Positions 13,441 to 37,408 of a stretch of DNA of 49,604 nucleotides are shown in pieces. Numbering within the stretch: the first letter of the stretch is position 1; the number at the start of each line of letters is the position of its first letter. The position numbers and the translations under genes were made by a program. Source of the stretch: an uncultured virus (IMG/VR IMGVR_UViG_2049941000_000719) (lineage: Duplodnaviria; Heunggongvirae; Uroviricota; Caudoviricetes); IMG/VR virus record IMGVR_UViG_2049941000_000719. One strand, 5' to 3'. The notes under the pieces are model-generated. The model did no database searches, was not told where the DNA came from, and saw nothing but the letters and a program-made list of their open reading frames with translations.

Positions 13441-14015
13441 CTATTCCCACCTGTCTTTATTATTGTACTTGAGTCCGGCTTTTCTTGCATCTCTCAAATT
13501 TTCACGCCACAGATCATACACATCATCTGTAAATGCGGATTTTTGATACAGATAACTTGAGCTTGCCATAGGAATGGTGACAAATCCGAATTTGTTCAAT
13601 ACAGATAGAGGTATTTTATATCTGTTCCATAAGTCCGTAGCTGTCAGATTCGTTGCTCCTCTGAAGACTTCTTGATTATAGGCTTTTTTTATAAATGTTT
13701 TTAAGGTGTAGTTNNNNNNNNNNCCGCAACATCTACCCATTTATCCGTATTAAAGTTAAATGCATACCATGAACTACCCCTTCTCTCAGATTCCAGTTCT
13801 GGGCTGTTATCAATACTGAACATCACTTTATTATTACGCAATACGAAAGTAGATAGATAAAAGTCACGCTTGTTGTAAATTGGCTTATGTACATAGGGAG
13901 ATGTCACTTTCACGAGGCTCCATTCCCCGACTGTTTGTACAGGGTGACTTGCAATCTTCATGTACTCGTCCCTATACCACTTACTTAACTCTTTTTTAGT
14001 TAAATTTGGTCTCAT
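13441..14015 (-). CDS. Family B-like protein (spans gap)
   Basis: FVLRNNKV..NYTLKTFIKK..IPLSVLNKFGF. Confidence 0.6.
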
Positions 14016-14085
14016 AAAATCCCCCCCCATAATTTGGGATCCCAGTTATACTTAGTTTTTTTTGAATTTTGAGATGCCATTTTAA

Positions 14086-14400
14086 TCACCTTTTCCAGTA
14101 CCTTTTAGAACCGATTATGAATGGGACACCCTGTGGCGGAGGGGTCATATCATATCCGAAGTGTTCCATTACAGATACAGGAATATATTTTGATACATCT
14201 CTATCAGGAATTGATGTGTAGTGAATCAGACCACGACTCATCTTATCCAAGACAGTATTTAAAGTATATCTCCCGGTAACGTATGCTTTAAACACACCAT
14301 GACCCTTACTATCTTCGGAAACAGAGAATAATTTATAGAATACTCCATTCAATCTCATAAGNNNNNNNNNNGCATATATACTTGCTACATATTTTGTCAT
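14086..14400 (-). CDS. Family B-like protein
   Basis: VTGRYTLNTVLDK..KYIPVSVMEHFGY, paralog of 12205 N-half. Confidence 0.7.
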   Translation of the reverse strand: MTKYVASIYXXXXLMRLNGVFYKLFSVSEDSKGHGVFKAYVTGRYTLNTVLDKMSRGLIHYTSIPDRDVSKYIPVSVMEHFGYDMTPPPQGVPFIIGSKRYWKR

Positions 14401-14413
14401 ATTCTTTTCCCCC

Positions 14414-14749
14414 TTATTTTTTCTTGAGTTCTTTGCTGACCGCCTTGATAATGGCGGACTTAATCTCATCGTCTCTACAATAATCTACATGGATCCCGTC
14501 GTTCTCGTCAATCCAGACTTTGGTGCCGGAAATGTATTTGTTGTAGTGGGAATTGCTCATCGGATAATTCTGGAAACTGACACTGCTGACGTTGCCTGTA
14601 TTGTAGTAACTGACCCTCAGTCCGATCATGTCCTTCCAGTCGTTGACGTAGTACCTGATACTGCCGTCACTTGCCCGCCATGCCTTTCCAATTTTTTCTC
14701 TGTTCGTAAGAGAATCCGATTGTTTTTTACTTGTTTTCTTTGTAACCAT
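14414..14749 (-). CDS. Virus-type hypothetical protein
   Basis: MVTKKTSKK start; YYNTGNVSS motif; AGGGGGG RBS. Confidence 0.7.
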   Translation of the reverse strand: MVTKKTSKKQSDSLTNREKIGKAWRASDGSIRYYVNDWKDMIGLRVSYYNTGNVSSVSFQNYPMSNSHYNKYISGTKVWIDENDGIHVDYCRDDEIKSAIIKAVSKELKKK

Positions 14750-14965
14750 CTCAATATTCCCCCCTTAAATTTAGATTATTTCCTACGTTTCATGTCTTGA
14801 ATGAACATGTATTCCACGGCATCTCTGCCGTTGTTGACGGTCTCGACATACTTTGCCACCCGTCCGGGAACCTCGCGGATGTAGATACCTATGCCCCTTA
14901 CAGGACGGTCGGGATAATCCTTTGCNNNNNNNNNNATCTATTTTTTGGAATATAGATCATAATAA

Positions 14966-15352
14966 TTACCTCCTCTTATTGCGTCCGGGCATTTTGTTAA
15001 TTGCCAACATCGGTGCACCCACAATACCCAAAGTCCTGAATAATGTAGCAGGTGCATATTTTAATACTCCGAGATCATTCATACGAAGAAGTTCAAAACC
15101 GTCAGGGTTGAAATTTATAGCCGGTATGATGTTTTTTACCTGCTTTATAGGAGGCATTCTTGAATCCAACTCCAAATTCCAAACGGTTAACAGGAAAATA
15201 TCTCCGTCAATGATAACATATCTTAATCTGTTATCCATAAAGACAAATTTCCACGGAGAGGAGAACCAAAAATCTCCCCCTTTTGATACGGTAATTACAT
15301 CCCATACTCCGTAAGAGTTCTTTGCTTTTTTCGACACAATTCGTGTTGCCAT
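14966..15352 (-). CDS. Family C protein
   Basis: MATRIVSKK; paralog of 12975. Confidence 0.8.
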   Translation of the reverse strand: MATRIVSKKAKNSYGVWDVITVSKGGDFWFSSPWKFVFMDNRLRYVIIDGDIFLLTVWNLELDSRMPPIKQVKNIIPAINFNPDGFELLRMNDLGVLKYAPATLFRTLGIVGAPMLAINKMPGRNKRR

Positions 15353-15393
15353 GATTTCCCCCAAATATGAGTTTGAATAATATATTACTCAAT

Positions 15394-15424
15394 AGGGAAT
15401 ACATAAAAATACATTACAATTTTT
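15394..15424 (-). promoter_or_regulatory. TTGTAATGTA-TATA promoter heading the basic-protein array
   Basis: Minus strand AAAAATTGTAATGTATTTTTATGTATTCCCT. Confidence 0.7.
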
Positions 15425-15728
15425 GGTATTAAGTTTTAAAAGGAGAACACGGGGTGTTATTTTACNNNNNNNNNNCCCGTGTTCGGATGTAACAAACAGT
15501 TTCGATTTGTGAGATATTATGGGTGAATTCGACTTTTTTGGTGATCAATGCCTTAAGTAAAAGGTTTGGATGAATGGATGCATAGATATGAACGACAACC
15601 AATACANNNNNNNNNNNNNNNNNNNNNNNNNNNNNNNNNNNNNNNNNNNNNNNNNNNNNNNNNNNNNNNNNNNNNNNNNNNNNNNNNNNNNNNNNNNNNN
15701 NNNNNNNNNNNNNNNNNNNNNNNNACTA

Positions 15729-15908
15729 TCAATCGGGGACACTTTGCAGATATCCCAATATCAGAGAGCCTGCCCCGACGATGACCAAGGTGACAATAAC
15801 TCCGTGCGCCACCGCGGTACCTGCAACCCACAGAGAATATATCAGCCCGAAATATCCGACAATCAATAGAACAATGAATAATTCCAATGCGGTATCAAAA
15901 ATATCCAT
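15729..15908 (-). CDS. Small two-TM membrane protein (59 aa)
   Basis: Read manually: MDIFDTALELFIVLLIVGYFGLIYSLWVAG.. Confidence 0.55.
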   Translation of the reverse strand: MDIFDTALELFIVLLIVGYFGLIYSLWVAGTAVAHGVIVTLVIVGAGSLILGYLQSVPD

Positions 15909-16007
15909 ACGAAACCTCTATTCAGCAAATACCCCGCAAAAACCGCATAATCACAACGGCAATACCCNNNNNNNNNNTTGCCGCAACCGTCTCCTCAGAC
16001 ATCGCTG

Positions 16008-16196
16008 TCATGAACCAATCACCTTACCCTTCAGAAAACCGCTTTCCCGTATCTCCTCGACGGGCATGTTAATGTATTCCCATAACTCCTCATTACTCCA
16101 GAATGTAGTCTCAATGTAATGAAGGATGTTGCCGATGACCTCATTTGTGAGTTCAGAGCCTTCCTCGTCCTGAAGACGATACGCAATGATTTTCAT
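16008..16196 (-). CDS. Small acidic hypothetical protein
   Basis: MKIIAYRLQDEEG with AGGAGA RBS, downstream of promoter copy 16257-16276. Confidence 0.65.
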   Translation of the reverse strand: MKIIAYRLQDEEGSELTNEVIGNILHYIETTFWSNEELWEYINMPVEEIRESGFLKGKVIGS

Positions 16197-16256
16197 AATC
16201 TCTCCTTTCGGAGTTTTTTCACTGATTCTGTCTGACATGACAGATATTTTAGACGG

Positions 16257-16276
16257 CATCCTTTTTAAGTAAAACG
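16257..16276 (-). promoter_or_regulatory. Conserved promoter CGTTTTACTTAAAAAGGAT
   Basis: Copies also at 16979-16998, 17227-17246, 17424-17442, 17738-17756, 35034-35052; TATA-like TTAAAAA core. Confidence 0.7.
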
Positions 16277-16325
16277 CAGAGCACAAAATAAAATAAAGAA
16301 TCACAAACTAAAAAACACATAATAG

Positions 16326-16509
16326 GAGATGTCTTCCCATGAAAGGAAAGACACATAGTAATTATAAAACACTCCGTAAAGAGCATCCTATATATCCCCA
16401 TGAAATGGGGAACAGTGTAACCGAACATCATTCGATATGACGTTGAACTAACCAATCAGTTCTGTTCAAAATCCAAATGCCGGTTCATCCCCATGAACAT
16501 GGGGAACAC
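16326..16509 (-). CRISPR. Orphan degenerate type I-E-like mini-array (3 repeats; 65- and 33-nt spacers)
   Basis: Minus strand GTGTTCCCCATGTTCATGGGGATGAACCG (16509-16481), CTGTTCCCCATTTCATGGGGATATATAG (16415-16388), GTGTCTTTCCTTTCATGGGAAGACAT (from 16354); first resembles the E. coli I-E repeat; all keep a hairpin. Confidence 0.7.
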
Positions 16510-16521
16510 AGGAGTATGTGT

Positions 16522-16573
16522 ACAATACATCCTCGCGAGCTTTATTGATGTGACATTATCGGGGATGTATTGT
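16522..16573 (-). ncRNA. Stem-closed RNA unit 0
   Basis: ACAATACATCC/GGATGTATTGT inverted repeat, 24-nt loop, TTAAATAAA upstream; directly precedes the mini-array. Confidence 0.45.
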
Positions 16574-16649
16574 CTGTATAAACATATGACACTCATAGTA
16601 TTTATTTAATTCGCGGCAAAAATAGAAAAATCAGAAAAACTGCCGTCAA

Positions 16650-16698
16650 AAAAAACAGATTCTTTAACCGAGGTTGGTTGTTAAAGAGTCTGCTTTTT
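16650..16698 (-). terminator. Hairpin followed by T-run
   Basis: cagattctttaac / gttaaagagtctg imperfect inverted repeat flanked by A/T runs. Confidence 0.45.
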
Positions 16699-16835
16699 CC
16701 CTTTTTGTAAATCATTAGGGGTTATTCACCCCATGCATGACACATTATGGATGTAGAGTGCGCGGAAACGTGTGTTTCAAGGTACTTTTCGGTTTAGAGT
16801 GTGTATCCAGACGATTAATTCTATATGTGATGAGC

Positions 16836-16960
16836 ATCAATACACGCCCGATTTTGAGTCATAATCATCGAGTTCATTAGAGGATCTATTAGATTTAGAT
16901 GTTTAGGAGGATCTATTAGATTTAGATGTTCTGTCTGTAACTCTCTCGGAGTGTATTGAT
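16836..16960 (-). ncRNA. Stem-closed RNA unit 1
   Basis: ATCAATACAC/GTGTATTGAT 10-bp stem (extendable), promoter 16979-16998; loop has a 24-bp direct repeat. Confidence 0.6.
16880..16930. repeat. 24-bp direct repeat x2
   Basis: gaggatctattagatttagatgtt at 16880-16903 and 16907-16930. Confidence 0.9.
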
Positions 16961-17123
16961 TACACACATATACAACTTCATCCTTTTTAAGTAAAACGAT
17001 AATATCACCTCAAACCGGTAAAATCCATGAGATGCATCCCCCGAATACATGTGATTTTCCAAGAAAATATATGATCGGCGCGGCAGACAAACCCGGCAAA
17101 AATCAACTGCGGGAAAATTGAGA

Positions 17124-17209
17124 AATCAATACAATCAGTAGGTAAAAATCTCGTTTATCGATAGGGAGGTGTTAAACAATGCTTTCATCCAATGGCGATT
17201 GTATTGATT
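17124..17209 (-). ncRNA. Stem-closed RNA unit 2
   Basis: Perfect 13-bp AATCAATACAATC stem, 60-nt loop, promoter 17227-17246. Confidence 0.65.
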
Positions 17210-17299
17210 ACACAGTTATACAACTTCATCCTTTTTAAGTAATACGCTGAAAAACCCCGAAACCACGATATCAAATAAATTATCTTCAGAATGAGATGC

Positions 17300-17405
17300 A
17301 ATCAATACGGCAGATCTATAAATGAACAGCATGTAAAGAATTTGTGACTAAACTAACACAACACCAAGAACGGAAATATCTTGATATTTGACTGCCGTAT
17401 TGATT
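17300..17405 (-). ncRNA. Stem-closed RNA unit 3
   Basis: Perfect 14-bp AATCAATACGGCAG stem, 78-nt loop, promoter 17424-17442. Confidence 0.65.
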
Positions 17406-17466
17406 ACACATCTATATGCGCTGATCCTTTTTAAGTAACACGCAAAATAGGTAACTTTCCGAAAGA

Positions 17467-17542
17467 TAGCGGAGAGCGGATTTGAACCGCTGATACTCCG
17501 GATCATGAGTCCGACGGGTTGACCTAACTACCCCACCCCGCT
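17467..17542 (-). tRNA. tRNA-Met(CAT), archaeal initiator type
   Basis: Cloverleaf: AGCGGGG/CTCCGCT acceptor (A1:U72), GGGT/ACCC D-stem, TCGGA-CTCATGA-TCCGG, AGCGG-TTCAAAT-CCGCT, A73. Confidence 0.9.
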
Positions 17543-17597
17543 TTTTCGTATGAATCCCCCCGATATCCCGTGCACACTACATGCACATATAGGAAGT

Positions 17598-17626
17598 CAG
17601 TTTATCCCCATGTACACGGAATATGC
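17598..17626 (-). repeat. Solitary degenerate I-E-like CRISPR repeat
   Basis: Minus strand ATATTCCGTGTACATGGGGATAAACTG; ends in ATAAACTG handle-like octamer. Confidence 0.5.
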
Positions 17627-17629
17627 GGG

Positions 17630-17719
17630 AATCAATACACCCGATGTAAGAGATTTATCATGAATTTAATCCAGATGACAAGAAACCTATGTAATTGGCG
17701 CAGATCGTGTGTATTGATT
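17630..17719 (-). ncRNA. Stem-closed RNA unit 4
   Basis: 16-bp stem with one mismatch, 58-nt loop, promoter 17738-17756. Confidence 0.65.
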
Positions 17720-17779
17720 ACCCATATATACAACTTTATCCTTTTTAAGTAAAACGGAAAACAGCACCAAATTATAGAT

Positions 17780-17855
17780 ACGCGGAGAGCGGATTTGAAC
17801 CGCTGAATCTCGGATTTTGAGTCCGATGGATTGAACCTGACTTTCCCACTCCGCC
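17780..17855 (-). tRNA. Atypical tRNA, anticodon CAA, paralog of the tRNA-Met
   Basis: Identical T-arm, TCGGA-CTCAAAA-TCCGA anticodon arm, 5-nt variable loop, G1:G72 mismatch, U73. Confidence 0.75.
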
Positions 17856-17981
17856 ATGACAATCTGAATACTACTCCGAATTCCCCAATAACTGTATTTT
17901 CGGATAAATCATCATTGTAGGGATACTGAATTAATTATCGCTAATATGCTAATTAACCGGGTGATGATTATCCGGGTTGCA

Positions 17982-18009
17982 CAGTTTATAGGTGATCTGT
18001 GGGGAATTC
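17982..18009 (-). repeat. Highly degenerate solitary I-E-like repeat
   Basis: Minus strand GAATTCCCCACAGATCACCTATAAACTG; both ends kept, hairpin lost. Confidence 0.35.
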
Positions 18010-18046
18010 AGGGTAATACTAATGAAAATAATCCCATCCTCTTTCA

Positions 18047-18133
18047 ACCAATACAGCAGATTTTGTAATTACTTTTTAGGGGTATATTGTAGGTAAATTC
18101 TAAAAAGCGAAATTAACAACCCGCCGTATTGAT
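18047..18133 (-). ncRNA. Stem-closed RNA unit 5
   Basis: 13-bp stem fully paired only on minus strand (three G-U pairs), 61-nt loop; promoter position is in an N gap followed by AACGC. Confidence 0.6.
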
Positions 18134-18230
18134 CATANNNNNNNNNNAACGCTTGTGTACCTTCGCAGATTGACGATGCCGACGGCAAAATATATCCTTT
18201 ATCGACACTCATCACCTTTTACGGAATAAC

Positions 18231-18512
18231 ATGAACTCACAAACAGAGATATCAGAAAAATCCCCGATAGAGGAGGTGCCGACATACATAAACCTGATAC
18301 GCGGCATCAACCGCCTGAACTTCACGATTACATCCCGGACGGATGCCGCCAAGGACGGAAACGAATTAACCGCCGATGAACTCAGTCAAATTGCACATGA
18401 CATATGCACGCTCTCGGACAAGCTCACCGCGGCACGCAGTCAGGACATTATCTCGATTAATCAAACAATAACTCTCGACNNNNNNNNNNCAGTATTAAAT
18501 AATCTTATTTAA
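18231..18512 (+). CDS. Hypothetical protein (gap at 3' end)
   Basis: First ORF of the plus-strand block. Confidence 0.5.
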   Translation: MNSQTEISEKSPIEEVPTYINLIRGINRLNFTITSRTDAAKDGNELTADELSQIAHDICTLSDKLTAARSQDIISINQTITLDXXXXVLNNLI

Positions 18513-18577
18513 AATTAAATAATATTAAATAACATGACGATCTATTATTATGTGTGCAACAGCACAGGAGTAAAAAA

Positions 18578-18784
18578 ATGTCAATCAAAATGAATCAGGA
18601 AGTATATGCGCATATCCACTCATTGGAAGGAAAGAAGGACAGAGTTACACTTCTTGAAAAGATAGAAGACCCGAAACAGCCGTATTACATCGTCGACTAC
18701 AACGGCAAAAAATGCACGGCAATATTCAATCCTTTTGTGTGGGAATACTATGCGGATGACCTTTACGGAGTTATCGAAGAATAA
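18578..18784 (+). CDS. Small virus-type hypothetical protein
   Basis: AGGAG RBS; CTAIFNPF..YYADDLYG. Confidence 0.7.
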   Translation: MSIKMNQEVYAHIHSLEGKKDRVTLLEKIEDPKQPYYIVDYNGKKCTAIFNPFVWEYYADDLYGVIEE

Positions 18785-18802
18785 CTCCCAAATTTTCAGG
18801 AG

Positions 18803-19360
18803 ATGTTAAAAATGACCAATAAAATCTACTATATCGAAAAATACACAGAATCGTTTAAAGAACTTAACGCAAACAACCCGCGCGAAGAATATACGGATAT
18901 CATCGACAACCTCACGGAAATGAAAAATATCCTCCTGAATGAGATTGCTGTATGGGATTGTGAGGATATCACGGATTTAACCTATTCAATAAGTAAATAT
19001 GAGAGATATCAGCGATACGCAGTAGATGCAATAACGGATCTTATCGATGAAGATGACGGAACCTACACAATCATCCCCGAATATATTCAGAAAGACTTCG
19101 ACGAATACGCGCACCATTCATCCTCCGGATTTGAACCGTTATCAATACAGGCATGTATCTGCGGATGGTCTGAAGACCCGGAGCGCATATGGGATTTCAT
19201 CCCGTGCGCGGATGTCGACGAATATCAAAACGTTTCCGAATTTGTTTATGCGGGAGACAAAAAGGGAAATTACCTGTATTACACATATGACGGAATGCAC
19301 GCCAAGAGCGAGACCGACGATTATTGGCGTGTAGAGAATGTTTTCGGAGATGAAGAATAA
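18803..19360 (+). CDS. Acidic hypothetical protein
   Basis: 185 aa ORF, AGGAG RBS. Confidence 0.7.
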   Translation: MLKMTNKIYYIEKYTESFKELNANNPREEYTDIIDNLTEMKNILLNEIAVWDCEDITDLTYSISKYERYQRYAVDAITDLIDEDDGTYTIIPEYIQKDFDEYAHHSSSGFEPLSIQACICGWSEDPERIWDFIPCADVDEYQNVSEFVYAGDKKGNYLYYTYDGMHAKSETDDYWRVENVFGDEE

Positions 19361-22188: not shown

Positions 22189-22467
22189 ATGACAGATGAC
22201 ATAGAAGAAGAGATACCCGTAAAACTGAAGAAAAAAATTGTTACCGTGTATGTGCCCGTCGAAATCATCAACGAGGCAAGAGCGCGCGGCATTAACATAA
22301 GCAAAGCGGCATCTGACGGGATACTGCTTGCGATAAGAGGAGATATGGAATATCAGAAATTGTTTATGAATCCCGATATTCTGAAATGCCCGATTAAAGA
22401 GGATGAGAAAGGAACAATCGATGAGGAGTCCTCGGATGATGAAGAACACACGGAGGAGACACCATGA
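22189..22467 (+). CDS. RHH / CcdA-like DNA-binding protein
   Basis: VTVYVPVEIINEARARGINISKAA fits the CcdA-family ribbon-helix-helix pattern. Confidence 0.65.
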   Translation: MTDDIEEEIPVKLKKKIVTVYVPVEIINEARARGINISKAASDGILLAIRGDMEYQKLFMNPDILKCPIKEDEKGTIDEESSDDEEHTEETP

Positions 22468-24821: not shown

Positions 24822-25885
24822 GACAATTTGTTATATCCTGTGCAAATTAATCTATTAAGTCCGAGATTATGAAAATTTTTGATGAAATACCGCGTAAAAT
24901 TAGAACTATAAGGATTATCGCAATTACAATACACCGTCTTATCTTTAAAATACTTTGAATAATGTGATAATTCTTTTACAATATCGTTGTATTGTGTATA
25001 AAACTCATCATCTTTATTTTTTTGCGCGACAATTAAATTTGAATTATTTGCCATATCTCTCACCTAAAAAAGTATGATATATTTATTCAATCAGNNNNNN
25101 NNNNGATTTAAAATCACCATTGCCTAAAAGATATTTGGTATTTACCTCAATAAACTCATTCAATTTTATCTCAGATATATAAAAGACATCGATAGGAACC
25201 AATTTTCTTACTACATCGAGTATATAACCANNNNNNNNNNAATTTACACAAAGGAACAATCTTTCCAGAATCTATATTCAAAGAAGTAATCCATCGTGCA
25301 TTACCAAATTTCTTAAGAGTTTGTTCGGGGGGGGGCGAACAAAAGATATGCTTTTGATATTTGAATAATTACTTATTTTGACCTGTCCAGTTGATATATA
25401 TGGCAACACAACAGGATAACCCAAATGAATTATTAATGTAATAAGTATCAATTCCTTATTATACTTCATTAGTAATTCAAAATAATCAATAAATTTGGAA
25501 AAAGGAGGGTTTGTTACTACTATATCCGATTCTTTCAAATATGAANNNNNNNNNNCACCCAATTTGAGAGATTTGTCTGCACATCCGTGTTCAAATTATT
25601 TACCTGATAATCCTCCCAGTTCATGACACTGTTTTGAGAATTTTGAGAGATGCCATCGGCATTCCCGGCACCGCGACGGCGGATTAATAATCTTGCAAAA
25701 ATATTCTTATTTTTTATACACAAATCCGTTCGTAAAAAATCAATTATTTCAAATAAATCTGGATTATGATAATCAAGATAGGACATAGGAACTCCGATTA
25801 TACCATTATAATCAGGAATTTCACTTAAACGATTTACATTGATTATATCTGGATATCCATCATATGATTGATACTTATTTATGAG
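24822..25885 (-). CDS. EcoRI-family adenine DNA methyltransferase, in four out-of-order blocks with a C9 frameshift
   Basis: KDDEFYTQ..VYCNCDNP..SNF (24822-25054); LLGNGDFKS (25105-25230); DIVVTNPPFS (25241-25545); YDGYPDIINVN..GVPMSYLD..ARLLIRR (about 25670-25885). Confidence 0.8.
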
Positions 25886-25895
25886 NNNNNNNNNN

Positions 25896-26884
25896 TTCAG
25901 AATCGGGGGTTGATTAGGGATTCTTTCAAAGTTTAAGACCCCGAATTCTATGTTTTGTTCTTCAATCACTGCCTGCCCTACGTCATCCAATGACCGCAAA
26001 AGCCGGAGTTGTACCATGGAATTCTTGGGGAGAGACCCCGGAAACCAAATTCGGATTGGTAAACGCTCTTTTACACGGTAATCCAAAAGATTATCGTCAT
26101 GTGTGCTCCCGAAGACCGAAATATTATTTTTACGGAAGTGAATCATCGATTTCGCGAAATTACCCGTCAAATGGAACAATTTACCTGCCGGATAGGAGGG
26201 GGTCACCGTGTGCAGTTCATCCAGAATGATTGTCACATGCCGCCCTTGGGTCTCCTCAAGGAGAGTGTTGCAGAACTCGAACCACCAACTCGGAGGAGGG
26301 GCAAGAACTCCTTCACTCGGAACATCCTTGAGACACTGTAATTCCTGCTGAGCAAGCGTTTTCAGGATGCTTTCGCCCAAGTAGTATTCCGACGGTTCGT
26401 AAACCACATTTATACCCCCGATACGCATATGTTCCATAAGGTCGACAGGGGATTTGTAATGTTTTATCGTTAAATCATGGTTGATTTTTCTTTTTTTACC
26501 GAGAGAGACCTCCGTAAAAGTATAGTCGTCATTTTCATGTACATGAACCATGAGGGGCTTAGACCGCCCGTATTTGGGGAAAGACTTCTTCCAATTTTTG
26601 GGAATAAGGCAATTCCAGTGGTCATCACTCATTCCGCGGAGAATAACGGTCTCCGGGTCGGTATCTATCGATTTGAGAGCGTCCTTATCAAATTTTCGGA
26701 GATCGTGTTTTGAAACTCCGTAGGGGAGAGACCGGGTAAACTGCGCGCACTGCATAAGCAATGTAGATTTGCCGTGACCGAAAGCCCCTATAAGGTCGCA
26801 GAATGTCCCGCCCGTGCCGCAGATACCGTCATCATGTATGAGAAGATTTTCCCACAATTTCTGAGCGTGACGCGGATCAATCAT
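25896..26884 (-). CDS. P-loop ATPase, possibly FtsK/HerA-superfamily packaging or assembly type
   Basis: Walker A GAFGHGKST, Walker B VTIILDE, FRKNNISVFGSTH; C-terminus at gap. Confidence 0.75.
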
Positions 26885-27368
26885 CGTCGTCGTCTCCCGA
26901 ACCCTTGCCGCCCGGTGATATCAGATGATATGTCGCACTCCACCTTTCCGAGTCGACATCTATGAACTCATGAACAAACGCAAGTTCTGACAGGTTTTCT
27001 GCAATCTCAATCGCATATTGTTCCGCCGCGATCCATGTGTCGCGACGTGAAAAACTTTCATACGCTTTATACAGATAATTTTTGGTTTTTATGAGTTTAT
27101 CCGCCGAATTAAACTCATCCTCTTTCATAATTTTTGGCACGCTTTTCTGTTTTTCGCGATTGTAAACCATAACTATTTGTACCTTCCCCGTAGACACAAG
27201 CGCGCTCCTGATAGCAGAATACAACATTGTCAGGAAGGATAATTTCAAGTGTATGTCTGCCGATCCTATGCATAAAAGATAGATTTCCGAGATAGCTTCT
27301 TTCTGTTTTGAGGATATTTCCTTCTGAGACGATGCTTTTTTTGTCGTTTTTGCAGTTTTTCCTTTCAT
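26877..27368 (-). CDS. Hypothetical protein coupled to the ATPase
   Basis: Overlaps ATPase start; K-rich N-terminus. Confidence 0.7.
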   Translation of the reverse strand: MKGKTAKTTKKASSQKEISSKQKEAISEIYLLCIGSADIHLKLSFLTMLYSAIRSALVSTGKVQIVMVYNREKQKSVPKIMKEDEFNSADKLIKTKNYLYKAYESFSRRDTWIAAEQYAIEIAENLSELAFVHEFIDVDSERWSATYHLISPGGKGSGDDDDD

Positions 27369-27508
27369 TATAGGAAGTTTTAGTAAGAAGGTATTGAAAT
27401 AAATACATTANNNNNNNNNNNNNNNNNNNNNNNNNNNNNNNNNNNNNNNNNNNNNNNNNNNNNNNNNNNNNNNNNNNNNNNNNNNNNNNNNNNNNNNNNN
27501 NNNNNNTC

Positions 27509-27811
27509 AGGTTATCTGCACTGGATGATCGGGTCGCATCAGCTCTACAAGATTGTGTTAACTCCAACGGCGGGGCATGTTGGATAACAAGTGCTGAACT
27601 GCTCAGCGCTTATCCTGATATACGTGCTCACCATACAGCTGTTACACATGCTTTACGCAGGTTGATGCAAAATTCATCAGCAACAATTGCAGATTACAGT
27701 ATATCTGTCCGGTCAAGCACGCAACAGCAGAGTCAGAGCAAAAAGAGCCATAATTACAGAACGGTTTTTAGAATAACCTCCATTGTCAAGCAACAGCAAG
27801 AGAATACGTAA
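27509..27811 (+). CDS. Possible wHTH protein, start in gap
   Basis: Read manually, 100 codons open: WITSAELLSAYPDIRAHHTAVTHALRRL..YRTVFRI. Confidence 0.45.
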   Translation, partial: RLSALDDRVASALQDCVNSNGGACWITSAELLSAYPDIRAHHTAVTHALRRLMQNSSATIADYSISVRSSTQQQSQSKKSHNYRTVFRITSIVKQQQENT

Positions 27812-28120
27812 CAAAGTGTTTTCATCACAGTCATAAGCTCCGAACAAATAATTTCATCACATGGAGAAAAGGGGATGGGAGTTTCCTCACCCCTATTATC
27901 TGTGTGGACAGCGATAGAGCGTTTCTATTGGTCTTTTTTGATGTGAAAGGTATAATCATATGTCTGAGTATAAGAAACGGGCACAGAATCAATCTATGAA
28001 GANNNNNNNNNNCGGATATGAAATTTTAGAGAACTGCGTAATGTTAATACCGTTTATCACCTGAAAATTGAAGTGAACATATTGCAGTTTTACAAACTAC
28101 AATAACAAGAGAGAAACAAG

Positions 28121-28966
28121 ATGGATATTATTACAATTTTGTATCTGATATCGAGTGTCATTGTATTACTGAACCTGACCTTTGCCGCATATCTGGATAT
28201 CAAATATCGTCGGGTGCCGTTTCAGGCATGGTACCCGATGCTGATATTCTGCACCCCGCTTTCAGGGTTGTTTTATGCACAATCCATACTCACAAATTCG
28301 TATTTTGTAGTATATATCGGGCTTGTGATTATGTTTTGCGCGGCATTCTATATAATTTCGCGATACATGAAGACCCTTGGGGGCGCGGATGCATGGGCTT
28401 TGATATTTGTTACCTTATTTGTCCCGATTTTACCCCCCGCAACATTGGTTCCCGTTGCCACATCTTCGACAATAACCNNNNNNNNNNTTTTCCCGATTGC
28501 CGTAATTGTCTGCTTTGTAATTGCCGTGTGCGCTGTTCCGGCAGGTCTGTTGATACAGAACCTTATCAAGGGAGAAAAAGCCCCGTTACTCTACCTTCTG
28601 ACATGTCAGCACATCTCCGCCGAGGACATCCCCAACAAAATCGGATTCATCATGGAGAATATCACAGTTTCCGATGCTGAAGAGGGGGAGAGGGGCTGTG
28701 AGTCCGCAGATAAGAGAGAGGGGGATAGAGGGGGATACACACACACATATCTTAAGACCGCGGATTTTATAAAGAGAATTTTGAAAAAAGACCTCAAATA
28801 TCACACAAAATATCTCATAAACCATATAGAGGTTTATGAGGAAAAGATGACAAATTATTCAAAAGCCGGGGAAATTTGGATAACATACACCATACCGCTG
28901 ATACTGCCGATGACGGCAGGTTATGTAATGGCATATATTGCCGGATATATCCTGTTATTTAACTGA
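28121..28966 (+). CDS. Archaeal A24 prepilin/prearchaellin peptidase (FlaK/PibD-like)
   Basis: AYLDIKYRRVP (first Asp), GGAD (GxGD-type), multiple TMs, C-terminal IWITYTIPLILPMTAG. Confidence 0.9.
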   Translation: MDIITILYLISSVIVLLNLTFAAYLDIKYRRVPFQAWYPMLIFCTPLSGLFYAQSILTNSYFVVYIGLVIMFCAAFYIISRYMKTLGGADAWALIFVTLFVPILPPATLVPVATSSTITXXXXFPIAVIVCFVIAVCAVPAGLLIQNLIKGEKAPLLYLLTCQHISAEDIPNKIGFIMENITVSDAEEGERGCESADKREGDRGGYTHTYLKTADFIKRILKKDLKYHTKYLINHIEVYEEKMTNYSKAGEIWITYTIPLILPMTAGYVMAYIAGYILLFN

Positions 28967-29000
28967 TTTAAAAAAGAGTGGTTGTAAGATAACTGTTCAG

Positions 29001-29423
29001 TTATCCTTTAAGAGCAAGGTATGTGCGTTTAATCAATCCAAATGCCTGATACAAAGCACGTGCCTGAACGTCTAACCAATCTTCACTTACATTAGGTCTG
29101 CGGTATCTACCTTCGTTTCTCTTGACTTTTTTTAACTCAGAAGGTGTACAAAGTATTGGGGCGATATCCCAATCATAAATCAAAGAATTGCCATTCCAAG
29201 AATATTCTTTCCAATCTCTTGACCCATTGAGCAACATTTTTTCTAAAATACGTATATCGGACACTTTATCCGACATTTTGATGTTCNNNNNNNNNNATTT
29301 CCAATCAAAGTCGGAAAGAAGCATCAGTGCATATTCTCTAACCCCCTTTTCCCATGCAGAACGGGGTTTAAACGACTTTACACCTTTGATTAATTGACCG
29401 TATGTAACCATGATATCACTCAA
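29001..29423 (-). CDS. Phage-type hypothetical protein
   Basis: SAWEKGV..LLNG..YSW..LCTPSELKK..EDWLDVQARAL. Confidence 0.75.
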   Translation of the reverse strand: MSDIMVTYGQLIKGVKSFKPRSAWEKGVREYALMLLSDFDWKXXXXNIKMSDKVSDIRILEKMLLNGSRDWKEYSWNGNSLIYDWDIAPILCTPSELKKVKRNEGRYRRPNVSEDWLDVQARALYQAFGLIKRTYLALKG

Positions 29424-29749
29424 TACCCATAATAATCAATTAAACTTTTATTCTCCACCAAAGCACGGTATGCATCCAATATCAGCCGAGATGCCTGAGA
29501 CAGTGCACGTGCCTGAACGTCTAACCAATCTTCGCGTGCATTGGGTTTCCGCCATCCTCCTTCTTTATACTTGAGTTTCTTAAGCTCGGATGGANNNNNN
29601 NNNNNNNNNNNNNNNNNNNNNNNNNNNNNNNNNNNNNNNNNNNNNNNNNNNNNNNNNNNNNNNNNNNNNNNNNNNNNNNNNNNNNNNNNNNNNNNNNNNN
29701 NCGGATTATAGGAATTTATCACTTTTAGAAGTTGTTTATATGTAGCCAT
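29420..29749 (-). CDS. Tandem paralog of 29001 (gapped)
   Basis: PSELKK..EDWLDVQARAL. Confidence 0.75.
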   Translation of the reverse strand: MATYKQLLKVINSYNPXXXXXXXXXXXXXXXXXXXXXXXXXXXXXXXXXXXXPSELKKLKYKEGGWRKPNAREDWLDVQARALSQASRLILDAYRALVENKSLIDYYGY

Positions 29750-29810
29750 TTTTCCCCCTTTATGAAATAAATTTTGTGTTTTTATTTATCATCACTTTGG
29801 AAATTATCAC

Positions 29811-30772
29811 TTATATAAGTTTTGCCTGTTGACTCATCGGATTTTCAAAATCCAGAACAGGTTCCTGTACATGCCGTAATTTTGGGGAATACTCTTCAAA
29901 AGGTATTTTCCAATACAACCATCGGCGATTTGCATAATTTGCAAGACGCCGTGTTTGCGGTGTGCTTTTGTATTGCATTACAAAAACATTGGTGTTCAAT
30001 TCCCGCAAAAGGTTCACGCGGTATATATCCTCATCAAAGGTTGAATTAAAGCCTGTCAGAACATAAAATATTACTTTTTTCCGAGTGTTGATGCCGGCAT
30101 TCTTCAGGAGATCCAAGCCTGCCGTAACTTTTGATTCATCCCGGATGTTGTCAAACGCAAAGTGGAGATCTCCCGTCCATCTGAGCTTACCGAGACGTTG
30201 CGCGATCTCCTCATCCAGAATGCGAATATCCATCCCTTGGATGGCATTGAATGCAAGATTATGTTCCAGAACGTAATCCGNNNNNNNNNNTAATCCGTGT
30301 TCTCAAAAAACCATTGTTTGTCGGCATAAACATTGTTGTCCAAAACAATGATCTTTTTGTGTTTTTTATCATGAAACTCGCTGATATGTTGCCATCTGTG
30401 AAAGCGCCCTTCTTTTTTCGGGACAACACAAAACGGACATTTTCGGATGCATCCGCGGGTTGTGTATCCCAAAGAGTAGTCCATTTCGGGATATATGGAA
30501 TAATCCGGGCAAATCTTTTCGTATTCGGGAGGGAGACGTTTATTGATATCTACTCCCGTGCCGCCAAGAGAGACTTGTGCATTCGGATAGAGTGATGCGA
30601 TGCCGCGTGCCTGCTCCGCATTTTTCGTAAATATACAGGACACATACACATAATCGGGATTCTCGACATCAAAACCAACCGTATCGCCCAACAGCTTGTG
30701 ATGTGCGCTTATCTGCATAAGCGCCAAATTCGGGATTTTCGAGTCAATGTTGACAAGCAGAACGCGCGACAT
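29811..30772 (-). CDS. Radical SAM protein (frame split at N gap)
   Basis: TTRGCIRKCPFC CxxxCxxC, LDNN, G.DIR, FAFD, FYVLTGF. Confidence 0.85.
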
Positions 30773-30814
30773 GTTATCCCATCCTGCCGAAATTATCCCG
30801 AAACCTTGCCGAGG

Positions 30815-31810
30815 TCATGTGTTCACCTCATTACAGAGGATATTTTTGTGCACATGTTCGGCTACGGCTTTCATCATCAACGGAGGTACGGCATTTCCCA
30901 CACACCGCCATTCATTTACAAATCCTCCCGACAGCCTGAAATCGTCGGGGAAAGAGGATAGTCGTTTAATCTCCGCGATTGTCATAAACCGAGGCTCTTC
31001 CCAATGAAACATACCTGCCTCGCCATGAATCATGATTTTTGCTTTGACAGTCGGGGAAGGGTTATCGGGATTTATTTTAATGCTGTTAAACCATTGTCTT
31101 TTCGGGTGATATTCATTAAAATACACTCCCAGTTTACAACGATTCCAAATATCGAGACATAATTCGTTATCTATAAAGTATTTTTCACCGTCGGGAACCC
31201 CTTTCAATGCATCACGGACGGTAATCACATTGTACAGGTTTGGTGCGGGATGTGTATTTGTTAAGGGTAAATTGCCGATTATATCATTTCGTATGCCGAC
31301 GAAAATCATCCTGTTTCGTGATTGCGGCACACCGTAATATTTTGCATTAAGTTGTTTTTCAAAGACAGAATAACCCAACTTTCGTAATTCCGTATGGATT
31401 TTGTAAAATATGGGTTTCATTGCCCCGTTTCGCATACCGGGAACATTCTCCATAATGAAACATTTCGGCGAAATACCTTTGAGTATCCGCACGTATTGTA
31501 TATAGAGCTGATTTTTCGGGTTGTCGGGGTTGTGCGCACCGCAGACGGAAAATCCCTGACACGGAGGTGACCCGTCCAGAATATCAAGTTCTCCGGCATC
31601 AAGACCTGCCGCATTCAGAAGGTCTTCGGGTGTGACTTTACATACATCCTGTTTAAAGAGTTCAGTATCGGAGAAGTTATCCGCGTAGTTGTTTGCCGCA
31701 TGTTTCTCTTTCTCGACGGCACAGAGGACGTTGCCGCCCGCCATGTGATATCCGAGTGAGGAACCCCCACACCCGCAGAACAGGCTGATCACGTTAAAAT
31801 CCCCGGTCAT
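30815..31810 (-). CDS. DNA cytosine-5 methyltransferase (orphan)
   Basis: FCGCGG, GSPPCQGFS, ENVPG, QSRNR, GNAVPP. Confidence 0.95.
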   Translation of the reverse strand: MTGDFNVISLFCGCGGSSLGYHMAGGNVLCAVEKEKHAANNYADNFSDTELFKQDVCKVTPEDLLNAAGLDAGELDILDGSPPCQGFSVCGAHNPDNPKNQLYIQYVRILKGISPKCFIMENVPGMRNGAMKPIFYKIHTELRKLGYSVFEKQLNAKYYGVPQSRNRMIFVGIRNDIIGNLPLTNTHPAPNLYNVITVRDALKGVPDGEKYFIDNELCLDIWNRCKLGVYFNEYHPKRQWFNSIKINPDNPSPTVKAKIMIHGEAGMFHWEEPRFMTIAEIKRLSSFPDDFRLSGGFVNEWRCVGNAVPPLMMKAVAEHVHKNILCNEVNT

Positions 31811-32773
31811 GATGCACCTCCGAATGAAAACAGGTTCATATTTAGCCCGACCGCGTATTTCATACGCTCTCGTGATAGCTCGCAATAATCCTCATTGGCA
31901 TCAATACCTATCCAATGCCTGTTAAGTTTTGCCGCCGAAACTGCTGTTGTTCCAGAACCCGAAAAAGGATCTAAAACAATATCCCCTTCATTTGTACCGG
32001 CTAATATGAAGAACTCCGCAAGTGATTCAGGGAAACGCGCGGGGTGAGAGATGCCCCTGTCTCGGCACAATCTGCTGAATGCGTCATTACTCAATGTGTT
32101 TGGTATCGAGAGAACGGAACCGGGGTCTGCACCGCCTTTGTCCGCCCAAGGGTGTGAATAGTCATATGTATGAGAACTCGGATGAATGTTTTTTTTACGT
32201 GTGCCGTGACGTTTCCCGTTTAACAGACGTGACATCCCCCCACAATAGGGTTTTCGGATGGAACCCATATTGAATGTCCATGTATCCCCTTTACTGAACC
32301 AGAAAATAAACTCGTGGGATTTCTTACATCTCCCGTATTTTCCCGTAGAGTATATGTTCGGAGGTGTTGCGGGATTGTGCCAAATATAATCTCTTACGAG
32401 ATTAAAACCTAATTCATGACATAATCTCAGAACTATCTCATAAACATATAATTGAGTTTTACCGTTTACCACACGGTCGTTTATATTCAAGACAAAAGAC
32501 CCTGTGTTTTTCAGAACCCTGTAAAATTCCGCGGCTTTTGGCATGAACCAATCAACATAGCAGTCTGGGGATATTTTTGAGTCAGATATTCCGTAATTTC
32601 TCATATCCGCATACGGAGGAGATGTAAANNNNNNNNNNATCCACACATTCAGCGGGATATCCAGTCAGAACATCTTCGCACTTGCCGTTGATGAAGACAT
32701 TCACCATCTCGGTATTGAACTTGTCGGAAAGCTCTTCGGGAATACCAATCCTGTCTGATAAGATCTCAGTCAT
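31807..32773 (-). CDS. N4-C/N6-A DNA methyltransferase, beta class (split at gap)
   Basis: TSPPY, HPARFP, DPFSGSGTT, GID. Confidence 0.92.
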
Positions 32774-33953
32774 TTTTTACCCCTCGCATTGTCCGAATTA
32801 TCCTGTTTTTGCTGTTCCTGAATAATCTGTAATATTTTTGCGAGGAGTTCAGGATGGATGCTCATTTCGGGATTAATCAGTGTCGGATCCGTGCTTAATC
32901 CGCAATGCGGACAATACTTCTGGTCGGGTGCAACGATGTTGCCGCACCTGATACATTTATGCGGCTTTACCGTATCCATAACACCGTCACGGTCAACGAC
33001 GCCCGCATGATCCAAAACTTCCGAGTCTATATCATTTTCCGAAAGTCTGGTGTATGTCGCCATCATGTGTGTATTGGGATTTCCCCAAGCTATGAGCTTT
33101 ATGATAGATTCATTGTAATTTTCACGCACCATATGTGTTATTCGGGATTTTCGTGACCTTTGCCGCATATCTGGATANNNNNNNNNNGCTTTTTTTGCGA
33201 GTTTCGTAAGAATTTCTATATAGGTTTTATATATGAGAGGGGTTTTTTGTTTTCTGTACAGTGATACAAACACAAAATTATCCCCCGTTGCGGGTGCAAA
33301 TGATTCATATTGATTTCTCCATTCGTTCAGGTATGGTGCCGCGGAAACCAGTCTGCAAAATCTCCTCTTTTTACATTTATGATCGTAAACATAAAGTTTG
33401 GCACCGTATTCGTCGGGGAAAACATCTTTCCATTTCAATGATGCAATCTCGGAAATGCGGCACGCACTTTCATAGAGTGTTGCGATGAATGCTCTGTCAC
33501 GGGAGTTGTTTGCGCACCTGATCATTTCACGGATTTCCGAAGGGGACAGTATTTCGTCCGGGGATGTTGTTTCAAAGTCAATCGGTTGATTTTTAATCAA
33601 TTCGATATCGGCAATATCGCAGTTTATGATTCCCTGTGTGATAAGATATTTCCAGAATGATTTACCTGCCTGTATAAACGCACGAATTGTATTATTTGTA
33701 TATTTGCCTGTTTTGAGATTGGAGATTTTTTGATAGATCTCATTTTTTGTCAGGTCTCGGATACGAACATGCGGTTCGATACTGCATAAGGTGCATATTA
33801 ATGATGTGAGTGTTGATTTACGGCTTTCACCGATATTATTTGTGACTGTCAAATGATTAAGATAATTTCTGATTATCTCTGCATCATCTTCCGTAATATT
33901 GCCGAGTTTCAGGTTTCTGGATAAGCTGACTTCAGGAGTGTATTTGGGATCTT
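32770..33953 (-). CDS. Tyrosine recombinase/integrase with C-terminal Zn ribbon
   Basis: LYESACRISE, RKSRITHM, MMATYTRL, CIRCG..CPHCG; frame extends upstream to the gap (GNITEDDAEIIRNYL). Confidence 0.9.
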
Positions 33954-33963
33954 NNNNNNNNNN

Positions 33964-34478
33964 AATCCGCCATATTCTACCGTAGCACCGTATTTTTGTT
34001 CATATTCTCTCTGACGACGTTCCCAAACTTCGTCATCTTTTCCGGTATCATGCAACATGCGGACATACTCGATAATCAGTTCACGGGCAAGCTCATCTGA
34101 GATATAATAACCTTTATTTCTGAATGCCTCAAGGGTTTGTTTACAATAATATATTGCCGCATTTTTACCCTTGTTTGCGAGAACAAAGGCTACAACTCCG
34201 TCGGATAATGAATCATAGAAGTCAAACAACTCTTTTTTGATCTTCTGTCTTTGTTCGAGAGTTATGTTGTTTTTCTGTAAATATTGTTTATATTCGTAGA
34301 ACAAATCAAATAATTCGGGTTTTGCCAGAAATTCAGGTGATCCTTCGATTTCTTTGAATAACAGGTAATCGATAATATCCCGCACAAAAGAACTCATTTT
34401 GTATGGGAGATATTCGTTGATTAATTTCTTCTGCCGGTCATCCAAATAAATCGACGTTTTAGTGTAATATCTGTTCAT
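33964..34478 (-). CDS. Protein with N-terminal RHH-like domain
   Basis: KTSIYLDDRQKKLI..MSSFVRDIIDY. Confidence 0.55.
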
Positions 34479-35033
34479 GCATTACACCTCTCTGAAAATA
34501 TTAGGATACCCAAAAAAATTGACTCCAGTCTCCACCGACTACTTTCTAAATTCCGGGATGGATACCCCCTCTCAAACCCCTCTCCAATAAATTTCAGANN
34601 NNNNNNNNTCAAGGGGGGTGTCTGGATTTTTTTGAGAAGTATGTCGGTGGCGTTAGGAGTCACTTCAGAAAGTGTATAAAAAAACTTTTCGGTTTGACTC
34701 GACACTATGGATAAACTATATTGCTCATCAACTTCATAGTAAATATTGTCCCGTGGGGATCTGGCGATCCTTCCTAACGGTGACAGGAAATGAGAATCAT
34801 CACATANNNNNNNNNNTACCATCTATATCAATTATTCTCATTTTTTCCCCCTTTACCAACAATAGTGATAATGCCGGAATTCAATAATTCCGACTTACAC
34901 TTTTCAATAGTACTTTCCGAAGGGAATGCGCTCGTTAATTGTCCGAGTGCATAAATCATGTTCAGAGCTGTTGCGTCAAACTGCTCCTGTGTCACATATA
35001 TCATATCTGTACCTCTGTAATGTTGTAACTTTG

Positions 35034-35052
35034 ATCCTTTTTAAGTAAAACG
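35034..35052 (-). promoter_or_regulatory. Copy of the CGTTTTACTTAAAAAGGAT promoter
   Basis: Exact 19-mer upstream of the RHH-recombinase-MTase operon. Confidence 0.7.
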
Positions 35053-35307
35053 ATTATATTCTCATACCTGTTTTAACTGTTCAGACATCTCCGATTGTTC
35101 AGGTTCGGGTGTATTATGTCTCATTCTGCTCTTCGGATATCCAACTTTGCATTCTTTCCATATGTCTTAACCCGCAATGTATCTCGGATTTAAGCGCGGA
35201 TGCATTCTTATGATTGAACGGTCTTTCGGTGCGGCATATGCTGAGGATTTTCAGGTATGCCTGTCTTGTTTTTTCAAGCTCTCCGTATATCTCCTTCTGT
35301 GCCTGAT

Positions 35308-35787
35308 TCATCTCAATATCTCCTCAAATTTAAAAATTACTCCGTCAACTTCTCTAAAATCACAGTTATCTCCGTAACATTCCCTGTAATTTCTTATCGA
35401 TGTATCCATCTTAATTCCGGGATAATTCTTACATCCGTCGGGATTAGAGAAATACAGATTCATGAAATATTTCCGGGCTTGGTCAACGGATTCAAAACCG
35501 TCTTCACGGTAGTACTCTGTGATGAAATCTTCAAGAGTTGTCGGTATTTTCTCTGTGATTTGGTAGTAATGTCCGTTGATTGTAAAGCAATCCCAGATAT
35601 TACGGTGTGCATCACGTCTGAAAGTCATTCTCTTTTTGCCGCTTAATATCGGATCATAGAATTTCTCATCAAATTTGAGAGGATTTTTTGTGGATTTCAC
35701 TCTTTCTTTCATCATCTCTTTGAACTCCTTTATTGAGTTATTCTCATCATTTTTGTCTCCTGTTCCGTCAGGGTTTGTAATCGTCAT
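35308..35787 (-). CDS. ASCH domain protein
   Basis: LKFDEKFYDPILSGKKRMTFRR..EDGFES. Confidence 0.75.
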   Translation of the reverse strand: MTITNPDGTGDKNDENNSIKEFKEMMKERVKSTKNPLKFDEKFYDPILSGKKRMTFRRDAHRNIWDCFTINGHYYQITEKIPTTLEDFITEYYREDGFESVDQARKYFMNLYFSNPDGCKNYPGIKMDTSIRNYRECYGDNCDFREVDGVIFKFEEILR

Positions 35788-35981
35788 TAGACGTTTNNNN
35801 NNNNNNAGACCTGTCTGTGTGAATTGCCGGATATCCAGTCTGTTCAGATACGATGCCATCATAAGTAAATTCGTTGCTAAGTCATTGATATGCTTTTCAA
35901 CGGATTTTTCACTTCTTTCTTTTATTGTCGTCATTTTAATCATTCCTGATACTGTCCCAAATTTTATCCATATCGCTTTTT

Positions 35982-37382: not shown

Positions 37383-37408
37383 CTTTTCTCCTTTGATGTT
37401 CCGATTGT

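Follow-up and report, generated by a model that had tools for sequence, protein, structure and literature searches.

Mimics of a host CRISPR repeat, known as Racr or solitary repeat units (SRUs), sit behind a promoter on a mobile element, match the subtype of the host system and are expected to sequester Cas6 and Cas7 in aberrant complexes. According to Camara-Wilpert et al. 2023 (PMC10651486), who define Racr candidates as a repeat unassociated with other (partial) repeats, type I-E examples have been validated, SRUs of archaeal viruses have been predicted, and expression of Racr or of a non-targeting crRNA reduces interference. A related design is described in a preprint on viral Cracr, the crRNA-like anti-CRISPR RNAs of phages and plasmids (bioRxiv 10.1101/2024.10.29.618823): the type I-E array of a Salmonella prophage is a cas-less mini-array of two or three units with degenerate repeats. 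One of these repeats lacks 1 nt in what becomes a smaller Cas6e loop, and its processing is poor, so that a long 3′ tail remains. Competition for host Cascade is proposed there, together with partial PAM-proximal matches to the host cas locus (the one functionally tested CracrIE RNA matches the casA promoter); the two pseudo-spacers described are 24 nt and 21 nt long, and the Cracrs known to that source come from three bacterial phyla. In archaea, the mini-arrays of the Sulfolobales viruses SPV1 and SPV2 (Medvedeva et al. 2019, PMC6858448) carry 1–2 spacers between host-type repeats of a subtype other than I-E, lack cas genes, and have their own promoter and host-like leaders, with spacers that differ between, and match, close relatives. 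Finally, CreA and CreR of cellular hosts are units of a degenerate repeat, a pseudo-spacer and a repeat. They steer Cascade through short PAM-proximal pairing that leads to no cleavage; they lie inside cas loci and repress a toxin or a cas promoter.

The locus described here lies in a 49,604-nt stretch of DNA from an uncultured virus (IMG/VR IMGVR_UViG_2049941000_000719), the whole of which is referred to below as the window. Judged by its sequence, it is a genuine CRISPR-derived, cas-less array in which one type I-E repeat is intact and two are decaying. It resembles the prophage Cracr in its small number of units, its degenerate repeats and the 1-nt deletion in one Cas6e loop, and a competition for host Cascade combined with partial PAM-proximal matches to a host cas locus can be proposed for it too, but its likely host is archaeal and not bacterial, its pseudo-spacer is 65 nt long, and the host match covers only 12/14 nt within the cas3 ORF. 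A host counterpart of CreR was not seen on the cas contig of the candidate host genome (G001), whose two intergenic gaps (88 and 38 nt) leave no room for one. As in Racr, a repeat mimic of the host subtype stands behind a promoter-like signal on a mobile element, and the expected action would be the same; unlike Racr, the first repeat is followed by two others and keeps its full authentic handle, so that a complete though over-long Cascade could form. With the SPV mini-arrays it shares the archaeal mobile setting, the few spacers, the host-type repeats, the lack of cas genes and apparently a promoter of its own, whereas its spacers are the same in the four variants compared and have no match in 12.8 kb of a relative (L059, below), and no likeness to a host-like leader was found by eye between the 38-nt cas2-to-array gap of G001 and the window sequence upstream of the first repeat. 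The unit organization is that of CreA/CreR, placed on a mobile element instead of inside a cas locus. The unusual points are the archaeal I-E setting and the double-length pseudo-spacer.

Anatomy of the mini-array

The type I-E repeat of E. coli is 29 nt long, with a 5′ G-GTTCCCC, a 7-bp stem, a tetraloop and the 3′ handle AU-AACCG. Of the three repeats on the minus strand (16509..16326), R1 fits this description, R2 fits in the stem only and R3 fails; the positions of repeats, spacers and associated signals are collected in the table.

Table. Features of the mini-array and its immediate surroundings (window positions).
Feature	Position	Strand	Description
R1, intact type I-E repeat	16509..16481	(-)	29 nt, GTGTTCCCCATGTTCATGGGGATGAACCG, 3′ end ATGAACCG; fold: 4 nt, 7-bp stem arm, GUUC loop, 7-bp stem arm, 7 nt
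Predicted Cas6e cut in R1	between 16489 and 16488		GGGG/AUGAACCG, giving the 5′ handle AUGAACCG
S1, pseudo-spacer	16480..16416	(-)	65 nt; sole unit with an authentic 5′ handle
R2, degenerate repeat	16415..16387	(-)	CTGTTCCCCATTTCATGGGGATATATAGG
S2, spacer	16386..16355	(-)	32 nt (33 if R2 is taken as 28 nt), canonical length; flanked by a degenerate handle and hairpin
R3, decayed third repeat	16354..16326	(-)	GTGTCTTTCCTTTCATGGGAAGACATCTC; own 8-bp hairpin
BRE/TATA-like box of 'unit 0'	16599..16614	(-)	GCGAA-TTAAATAAATA; read from sequence, putative promoter
Leader hairpin	16522..16573	(-)	14-nt arms ACAATACATCC.../...GGATGTATTGT, 24-nt loop; just upstream of R1
T6 run (T7 or T8 in relatives)	16310..16315	(-)	archaeal terminator-like, after R3; putative function
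62-aa ORF, acidic, glutamate-rich	16011..16196	(-)	directly downstream of the array; own promoter unit 16237-16276

This layout of three repeats and two spacers had been drawn in an initial annotation of the DNA, and both the anatomy and its coordinates hold on the minus strand. The repeat core TGTTCCCCAT(N0-1)TTCATGGGGAT occurs twice in the window and in none of 100 shuffles. Positions 2-23 of R2 are identical to R1 at 21/22 sites, with a 1-nt deletion in the loop; R2 had been annotated as a degenerate repeat with intact hairpin, and indeed its stem is kept, while the loop is 1 nt shorter and the 3′ handle is lost, with AUAUAUAGG in its place after a retained cut site (GGGG/AU). The case of R3 is less direct, as it shares only a 9-mer with R2, which BLAST alone would rate as chance. 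Specifically, the 9-mer occupies the same repeat positions (11-19) in both, exactly one canonical I-E period (61 nt) apart, and the third repeat of a relative (L059, below) reads ...TCTCCCCTTTCATGGG... (TGTCTCCCCTTTCATGGG), which is nearer to R2; for these two reasons R3 is accepted as a decayed third repeat. Decay rises from R1 to R3. The repeat periods are 94 nt from R1 to R2 and 61 nt from R2 to R3, and since the type I-E arrays found in the genome scan described below all have a 61-nt period, I-E adaptation cannot have produced the 65-nt S1.

Among the 72 window ORFs of at least 90 aa that were scanned, no cas family was found (masked N runs might conceal small genes), as the initial annotation had also noted, and the array is therefore regarded as an orphan. 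Rfam, searched with gathering thresholds and at E<=10 on 16200-17100, returned no CRISPR-DR family, which is not counted against the repeat because the CRISPR-DR models are short; megablast of 14000-19000 against INPHARED gave no match. A reading of the locus as coding was rejected, as the frame of the overlapping ORF (16249-16455) is not kept in L059.

Carrier element and candidate host

The repeat pattern TTCCCCATNNNNATGGGGATNAACC was scanned across 185,579 species genomes and gave 33 loci, of which 22 have 3 to 148 copies spaced 61 nt and are for that reason real I-E arrays; this bears out the annotated assignment to type I-E, the best match of R1 being 28/29. That match is the repeat of a Methanomicrobium sp. 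MAG from goat abomasum (locus L008, genome G001), in which stem, loop and handle are identical and the sole difference is at position 2; R1 has a 27-nt exact match to G001 (E 2.8e-5). A marine Rhodospirillaceae MAG (L029) also has a 28/29 repeat, which differs in the loop. The G001 array stands at the end of a contig that reads cas3 (C-terminal part)-cse1-cse2-cas7-cas5-cas6e-cas1-cas2, then array; all these genes score above the Pfam curated cut-offs, cas3 being cut by the contig end. The array itself has just 3 repeats and lies at a contig end in a MAG. A mis-binned bacterial contig is argued against by the fact that Cas1, Cas6e and Cas5e of G001 are closest, among 32 other loci, to those of a Methanocalculus MAG and a Methanomicrobiales MAG. 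A comparison with candidate host arrays, which had been suggested as a check on the repeat, thus yields a candidate beside an I-E cas operon, and because it exists the repeat cannot be called unrelated to any host array, one of the two outcomes that had been named as speaking against the initial annotation. Two short sequences are common to the gap between cas3 and cse1 of G001 (contig C117, L060) and the window, and both may be shared by chance: the 11-mer ATACTATGAGT, which recurs in 'unit 0' after the TATA-like box (16600-16590), and TTAAAAAGGA, which recurs in the promoter units of the window.

The carrier itself is largely opaque to annotation, with 64/72 window ORFs lacking a PHROG match. 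What can be recognized comprises an archaeal-type A24 peptidase (Arc_PepC_II), a DUF6293/HFX_2341 winged-helix protein, three DNA methyltransferases and an integrase in Pfam, as well as radical-SAM and PAPS-reductase-like proteins in PHROGs; capsid and terminase families were found in neither database among the 72 ORFs. On this gene content, the carrier is an archaeal mobile element, either a virus or a plasmid. Its peptidase gene (28121-28966, archaeal prepilin/preflagellin peptidase-like) has its best match among 401 sampled genomes of the phylum of G001 in the chromosomal copy of G001 itself (170 bits, 41% identity), and the next five matches all fall within the family of G001, which is host evidence independent of the repeat. 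The carrier's host is likely, as repeat and peptidase both suggest, a rumen Methanomicrobium-like archaeon with a matching chromosomal I-E system. The stretch 15978-18137 is present in bovine gut and manure metagenomes from 13 studies, and the GC content is 39.8% in the window vs 45-48% in G001. Through the repeat, an element of 50-75 kb that otherwise defies annotation is assigned to a Methanomicrobium-like methanogen as its host; the mobile elements of such rumen archaea, about which little is known, bear on methane biology. Among the items listed by a literature search on Methanomicrobium, CRISPR and rumen viruses, none concerned this element.

At the DNA level, the whole window matched 39 genomes of the family of G001 only in tRNAs, through gene homology or in short AT-rich stretches. 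One of these, a 33-nt match in G029, was considered as a host spacer and rejected, as it has no flanking repeats and lies outside any array; G026, from the same family as G001, has short matches of 33 nt and 42 nt, and a 59-nt stretch in the peptidase gene region is 85% identical to G004. DNA-modification genes are plentiful in the block 25535-38128, whose products include an EcoRI-type adenine methylase-like protein, methylases of the C5 and the N6/N4 kind, a PAPS-reductase-like protein and a tyrosine integrase that has a zinc ribbon. The radical-SAM gene of this block (29811-30772) is split into two overlapping ORFs with a masked N run inside its span, and a CcdA antitoxin-like match at 22189-22467, upstream of the DUF6293/HFX_2341 winged-helix gene, is weak (21.7 vs the Pfam cut-off of 22.4 bits).

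Relatives, targets and possible roles

Relatives of the element were not found in IMG/VR by two neighbouring proteins, the promoter-unit pattern, a relaxed hairpin pattern or the exact R1 core. The latter is also absent from JGI metagenomes, which is explained by a handle substitution in the relative found there: L059, a 75-kb contig detected via the promoter-unit pattern, shares 92.7% identity with the window across 2.5 kb and contains this array too, with the R1 handle reading AUGUACCG (ATGTACCG). It further differs by 3 substitutions in S1 (still 65 nt long), 1 in the R2 handle, a 1-nt deletion in S2 and 2 substitutions in R3, i.e. by 8 differences in 184 nt, which make up 8/11 point differences of the aligned stretch; the stems and loops of R1 and R2 are without any change. 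As a whole, the conservation of the array is no better than that of its flanks and is not special. Over the array, DNA contigs of two further studies (X5 and X6) show 1 and 0 differences, and the same numbers apply to S1. Both hairpins, of R1 and of R2, are intact in 4/4 variants, sampled from 2011 to 2025, and since the window, L059, X5 and X6 all have the same S1 and S2, the array is static, shows no spacer turnover and is not actively acquiring. A single X6 contig joins 16277 to about 18153, a weak hint that some strains may lack both the array and the entire non-coding cluster.

The initial annotation had also suggested that the spacers be compared with viruses by BLAST, and here its expectation found no support. 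Three exact sub-patterns (S1 nt 1-23, S1 nt 35-54 and S2) gave no protospacer in IMG/VR, and none came from INPHARED or PLSDB, where BLAST of the array matched only other I-E repeats; neither spacer recurs in the window or has a match in 12.8 kb of L059, in L058 or, at E<=10, in the G001 genome, and the two spacers of G001 have none in the window, L058 or L059. Because rumen archaeal mobile elements are poorly sampled (the above searches of IMG/VR gave no relative of this one), the absent protospacer is weak evidence. Self-targeting, or a CreTA-like pairing to nearby promoters, was rejected, as there are only chance matches of 8-11 nt, including an 11-mer at 29045 flanked by CAG.

A shorter kind of match was sought by scanning the 7.4-kb cas contig of G001 with the seed of S1 (positions 1-5 and 7-11, at least 9/10) next to the PAMs AAG, ATG, AGG and GAG, which form an E. 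coli-type set and may not be the PAM of the G001 system. Two PAM-flanked near-matches were found, both in the 3′ half of the cas3 ORF. The first site, AAG followed by GCATTAAGATTTTG, pairs at 12/14 nt on the antisense strand with a mismatch at seed position 7; the second, ATG followed by CCATTCGGATT, agrees on the sense strand at 9/10 seed positions with a mismatch at position 1. The similarity between S1 and cas3 ends after nt 14, and the sites lie in the ORF and not in a promoter, the region upstream of cas3 being outside the contig. Two sites were obtained with 0/300 shuffled seeds and with 45/20,000 natural 11-mers of the window (p about 0.002; 5% gave one site), and in 59.6 kb of other G001 DNA there were five seed matches, none of them PAM-flanked. 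When a PAM plus S1 nt 1-14 was required with <=1 mismatch, a pattern shaped after the match had been seen, the sole match in the 1.6-Mb G001 genome was the cas3 site. The chance rate was taken from five other I-E genomes, which yielded three matches in 16.9 Mb, including one within a PKD WDFGDG motif. The seed matches in cas3 are no more than suggestive of a decoy or regulator role.

As for which of the two units could work, the 5′ handle of S2 would derive from R2 and reads AUAUAUAG, agreeing with AUGAACCG at 4/8 positions, and its 3′ hairpin (R3) is remodelled. The S1 unit, on the other hand, has the authentic 8-nt handle at its start and, at its end, the near-intact Cas6e hairpin of R2 with its intact cut site. 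As only this 65-nt unit has an authentic 5′ handle, the 33-nt spacer, which had been put forward as a possible guide, becomes less likely in that role: of the two, it is the 65-nt unit that plausibly serves as a substrate for Cascade, the 33-nt one being probably vestigial.

The reading that we tentatively favour, while giving it slightly less than an even chance, is a crRNA-like decoy or regulator akin to Racr and Cracr that uses the Cas6e and Cascade of the host. Host Cas6e would cut R1 after GGGG and bind the R2 hairpin, and the product would be an RNA of ~93 nt made of the 8-nt handle AUGAACCG, a 65-nt non-viral 'spacer' and the Cas6e hairpin; poor cutting of the short-loop R2 would result in a longer RNA tail. 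In E. coli, lengthening the spacer brings one further Cas7 for every 6 nt and one Cse2 for every 12 nt (PMC5009729), and by this rule about 11 Cas7 would be expected in a Cascade built on a 65-nt spacer (S1 exceeds the usual length by 33 nt, not a multiple of 6). The RNA would load host Cascade subunits into such an over-long complex, with roughly 11 Cas7 vs 6, and divert Cas proteins from host crRNAs in the manner of Racr or non-targeting crRNAs; Cascade may also be parked at the two PAM-flanked seed matches in host cas3, in a Cracr-like repression. The full Cascade-loading function is not obviously under selection in L059, as its R1 handle is substituted. The strongest form of this proposal would make the array the first RNA anti-CRISPR of an archaeal mobile element, in which a double-length Cas6e-matured RNA forms an over-long Cascade that absorbs Cas7, sits on two PAM-flanked cas3 sites and disarms the host I-E system while keeping its Cascade hijacked; we regard that complete scenario as unlikely. 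Should the favoured mechanism hold, RNA-based anti-CRISPR (Racr/Cracr) would extend from bacteria to archaea, and the over-long pseudo-spacer would add a new design.

Three other explanations have to be weighed against this one. The array may be a non-functional relic, i.e. a fragment of a host I-E array that was captured by recombination, decays from the trailer end and is passively carried; even so, it would be a record of an archaeal mobile element taking up a host array. The growing decay from R1 to R3 is what such a fragment would leave, as are the L059 changes (handle substitution, S2 indel, conservation no better than in the flanks), the possible deletion variant on the single X6 contig, the lack of any target and the lack of an array transcript among RNA contigs, although contigs cannot show absence. 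We consider it somewhat unlikely, as both hairpins have stayed intact in all four variants, the array is framed by a BRE/TATA-like box and a T-run, R1 is still 28/29 identical to the host repeat, and seed matches such as those in host cas3 arise by chance with a p of about 0.002. Alternatively, S1 and/or S2 might guide host Cascade-Cas3 against a virus or plasmid that competes for the same host, a superinfection exclusion as in the Sulfolobus SPV viruses. A repeat that matches the host array on an element without its own cas genes and with apparently its own promoter, the canonical S2 length and R2-R3 period, and the finding that extended spacers can still direct interference in E. coli (PMC5009729) would all suit a conventional guide, for which a missing protospacer weighs little given the sampling. 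Such a guide nevertheless seems unlikely: IMG/VR sub-patterns, INPHARED, PLSDB, the window and 12.8 kb of L059 hold no protospacer, the 4 variants show no spacer turnover of the kind described for SPV1 and SPV2 (PMC6858448), no host-like leader was seen by eye, the handle and hairpin of S2 are degenerate, and the 65-nt S1 was not made by adaptation.

The remaining explanation dispenses with CRISPR function altogether and takes R1-S1-R2 as one long imperfect hairpin, a structural or regulatory element (RNA or DNA cruciform) with an incidental or exapted likeness to a repeat. Indeed, the MFE fold pairs R1 with R2 (z-score -6.2; 0/200 shuffles fold as well), and the helix extends into both flanks (AACCGG-CAU with AUG-U-UCGGUU, CCUGUGU with AUAUAGG). 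But any two palindromic repeats can pair, an identity of 28/29 to the real repeat of the likely host, loop and handle included, cannot be incidental, and both L059 changes in the extended helix break pairs without compensation, so that covariation gives no support; this explanation is therefore very improbable.

Expression signals and neighbouring features

The array appears, from its flanking motifs, to be its own small transcription unit that runs from the BRE/TATA-like box to the T-run. The initial annotation had placed it on the strand of the ncRNA promoters and just downstream of unit 0; it does lie on the strand of the promoter units, with such a box before it and a T6 run after it. The 'unit 0' box repeats the promoter units TTACTTAAAAAGGAT-N16-GTAATCAATAC in degenerate form, and the predicted transcription start is at about 16575-16585; a sigma-70 promoter scan is not applicable, as the host is archaeal. 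The leader hairpin (inverted repeat I6) is present in the MFE fold and identical in L059. In two metatranscriptome studies, RNA contigs (240 nt at 100% identity in X15, 190 nt in X16) lie over 16693-16932, the ncRNA segment between the promoter unit 16959-16998 and the hairpin 16650-16698, which is consistent with transcription of the neighbouring unit, although RNA libraries can contain DNA; none of the contigs of X15 and X16 lies over the array, and contigs cannot show absence and are uninformative for small RNAs.

Several features of the surrounding non-coding cluster deserve mention in their own right. The promoter-like unit TTACTTAAAAAGGAT-N16-GTAATCAATAC, which lies on the minus strand at 16949-17760 and is also seen at 16237-16276 and about 18120-18150, occurs with fixed spacing in four full copies. 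Behind each full copy comes a segment of 90-130 nt with the inverted motif GTATTGATT at its end, which gives every predicted RNA a terminal stem; the second motif is missing from a fifth copy, which stands before the small ORF at 16196. In some strains whole blocks may be lost by recombination between promoter units, as loose contig ends suggest. The segment 16693-16932 holds an exact 24-nt tandem duplication (16880-16903, 16907-16930) and has no Rfam family, and the 19-bp inverted repeat at 16650-16698, with T-runs on both sides, looks like a two-way terminator between the ncRNA and the array unit; L059 has an 18-nt insertion right beside it. The 62-aa ORF downstream of the array has no match in Pfam, PHROG, PDB or Atlas and is 61/62 identical in L059; to name it a candidate anti-CRISPR partner is speculation from its position alone. 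There are also genes for tRNA-Met(CAT) at 17467-17542 and tRNA-Leu(CAA) at 17780-17855, both on the minus strand and near-identical in the T-arm and 3′ part, which sit in paralogous modules of a tRNA and a promoter unit that are about 78% identical. The tRNA-Leu(CAA) is 76 nt long, which is short for a tRNA-Leu, and the tRNA-Met is 72-80% identical to tRNAs in 36/39 Methanomicrobiaceae genomes.
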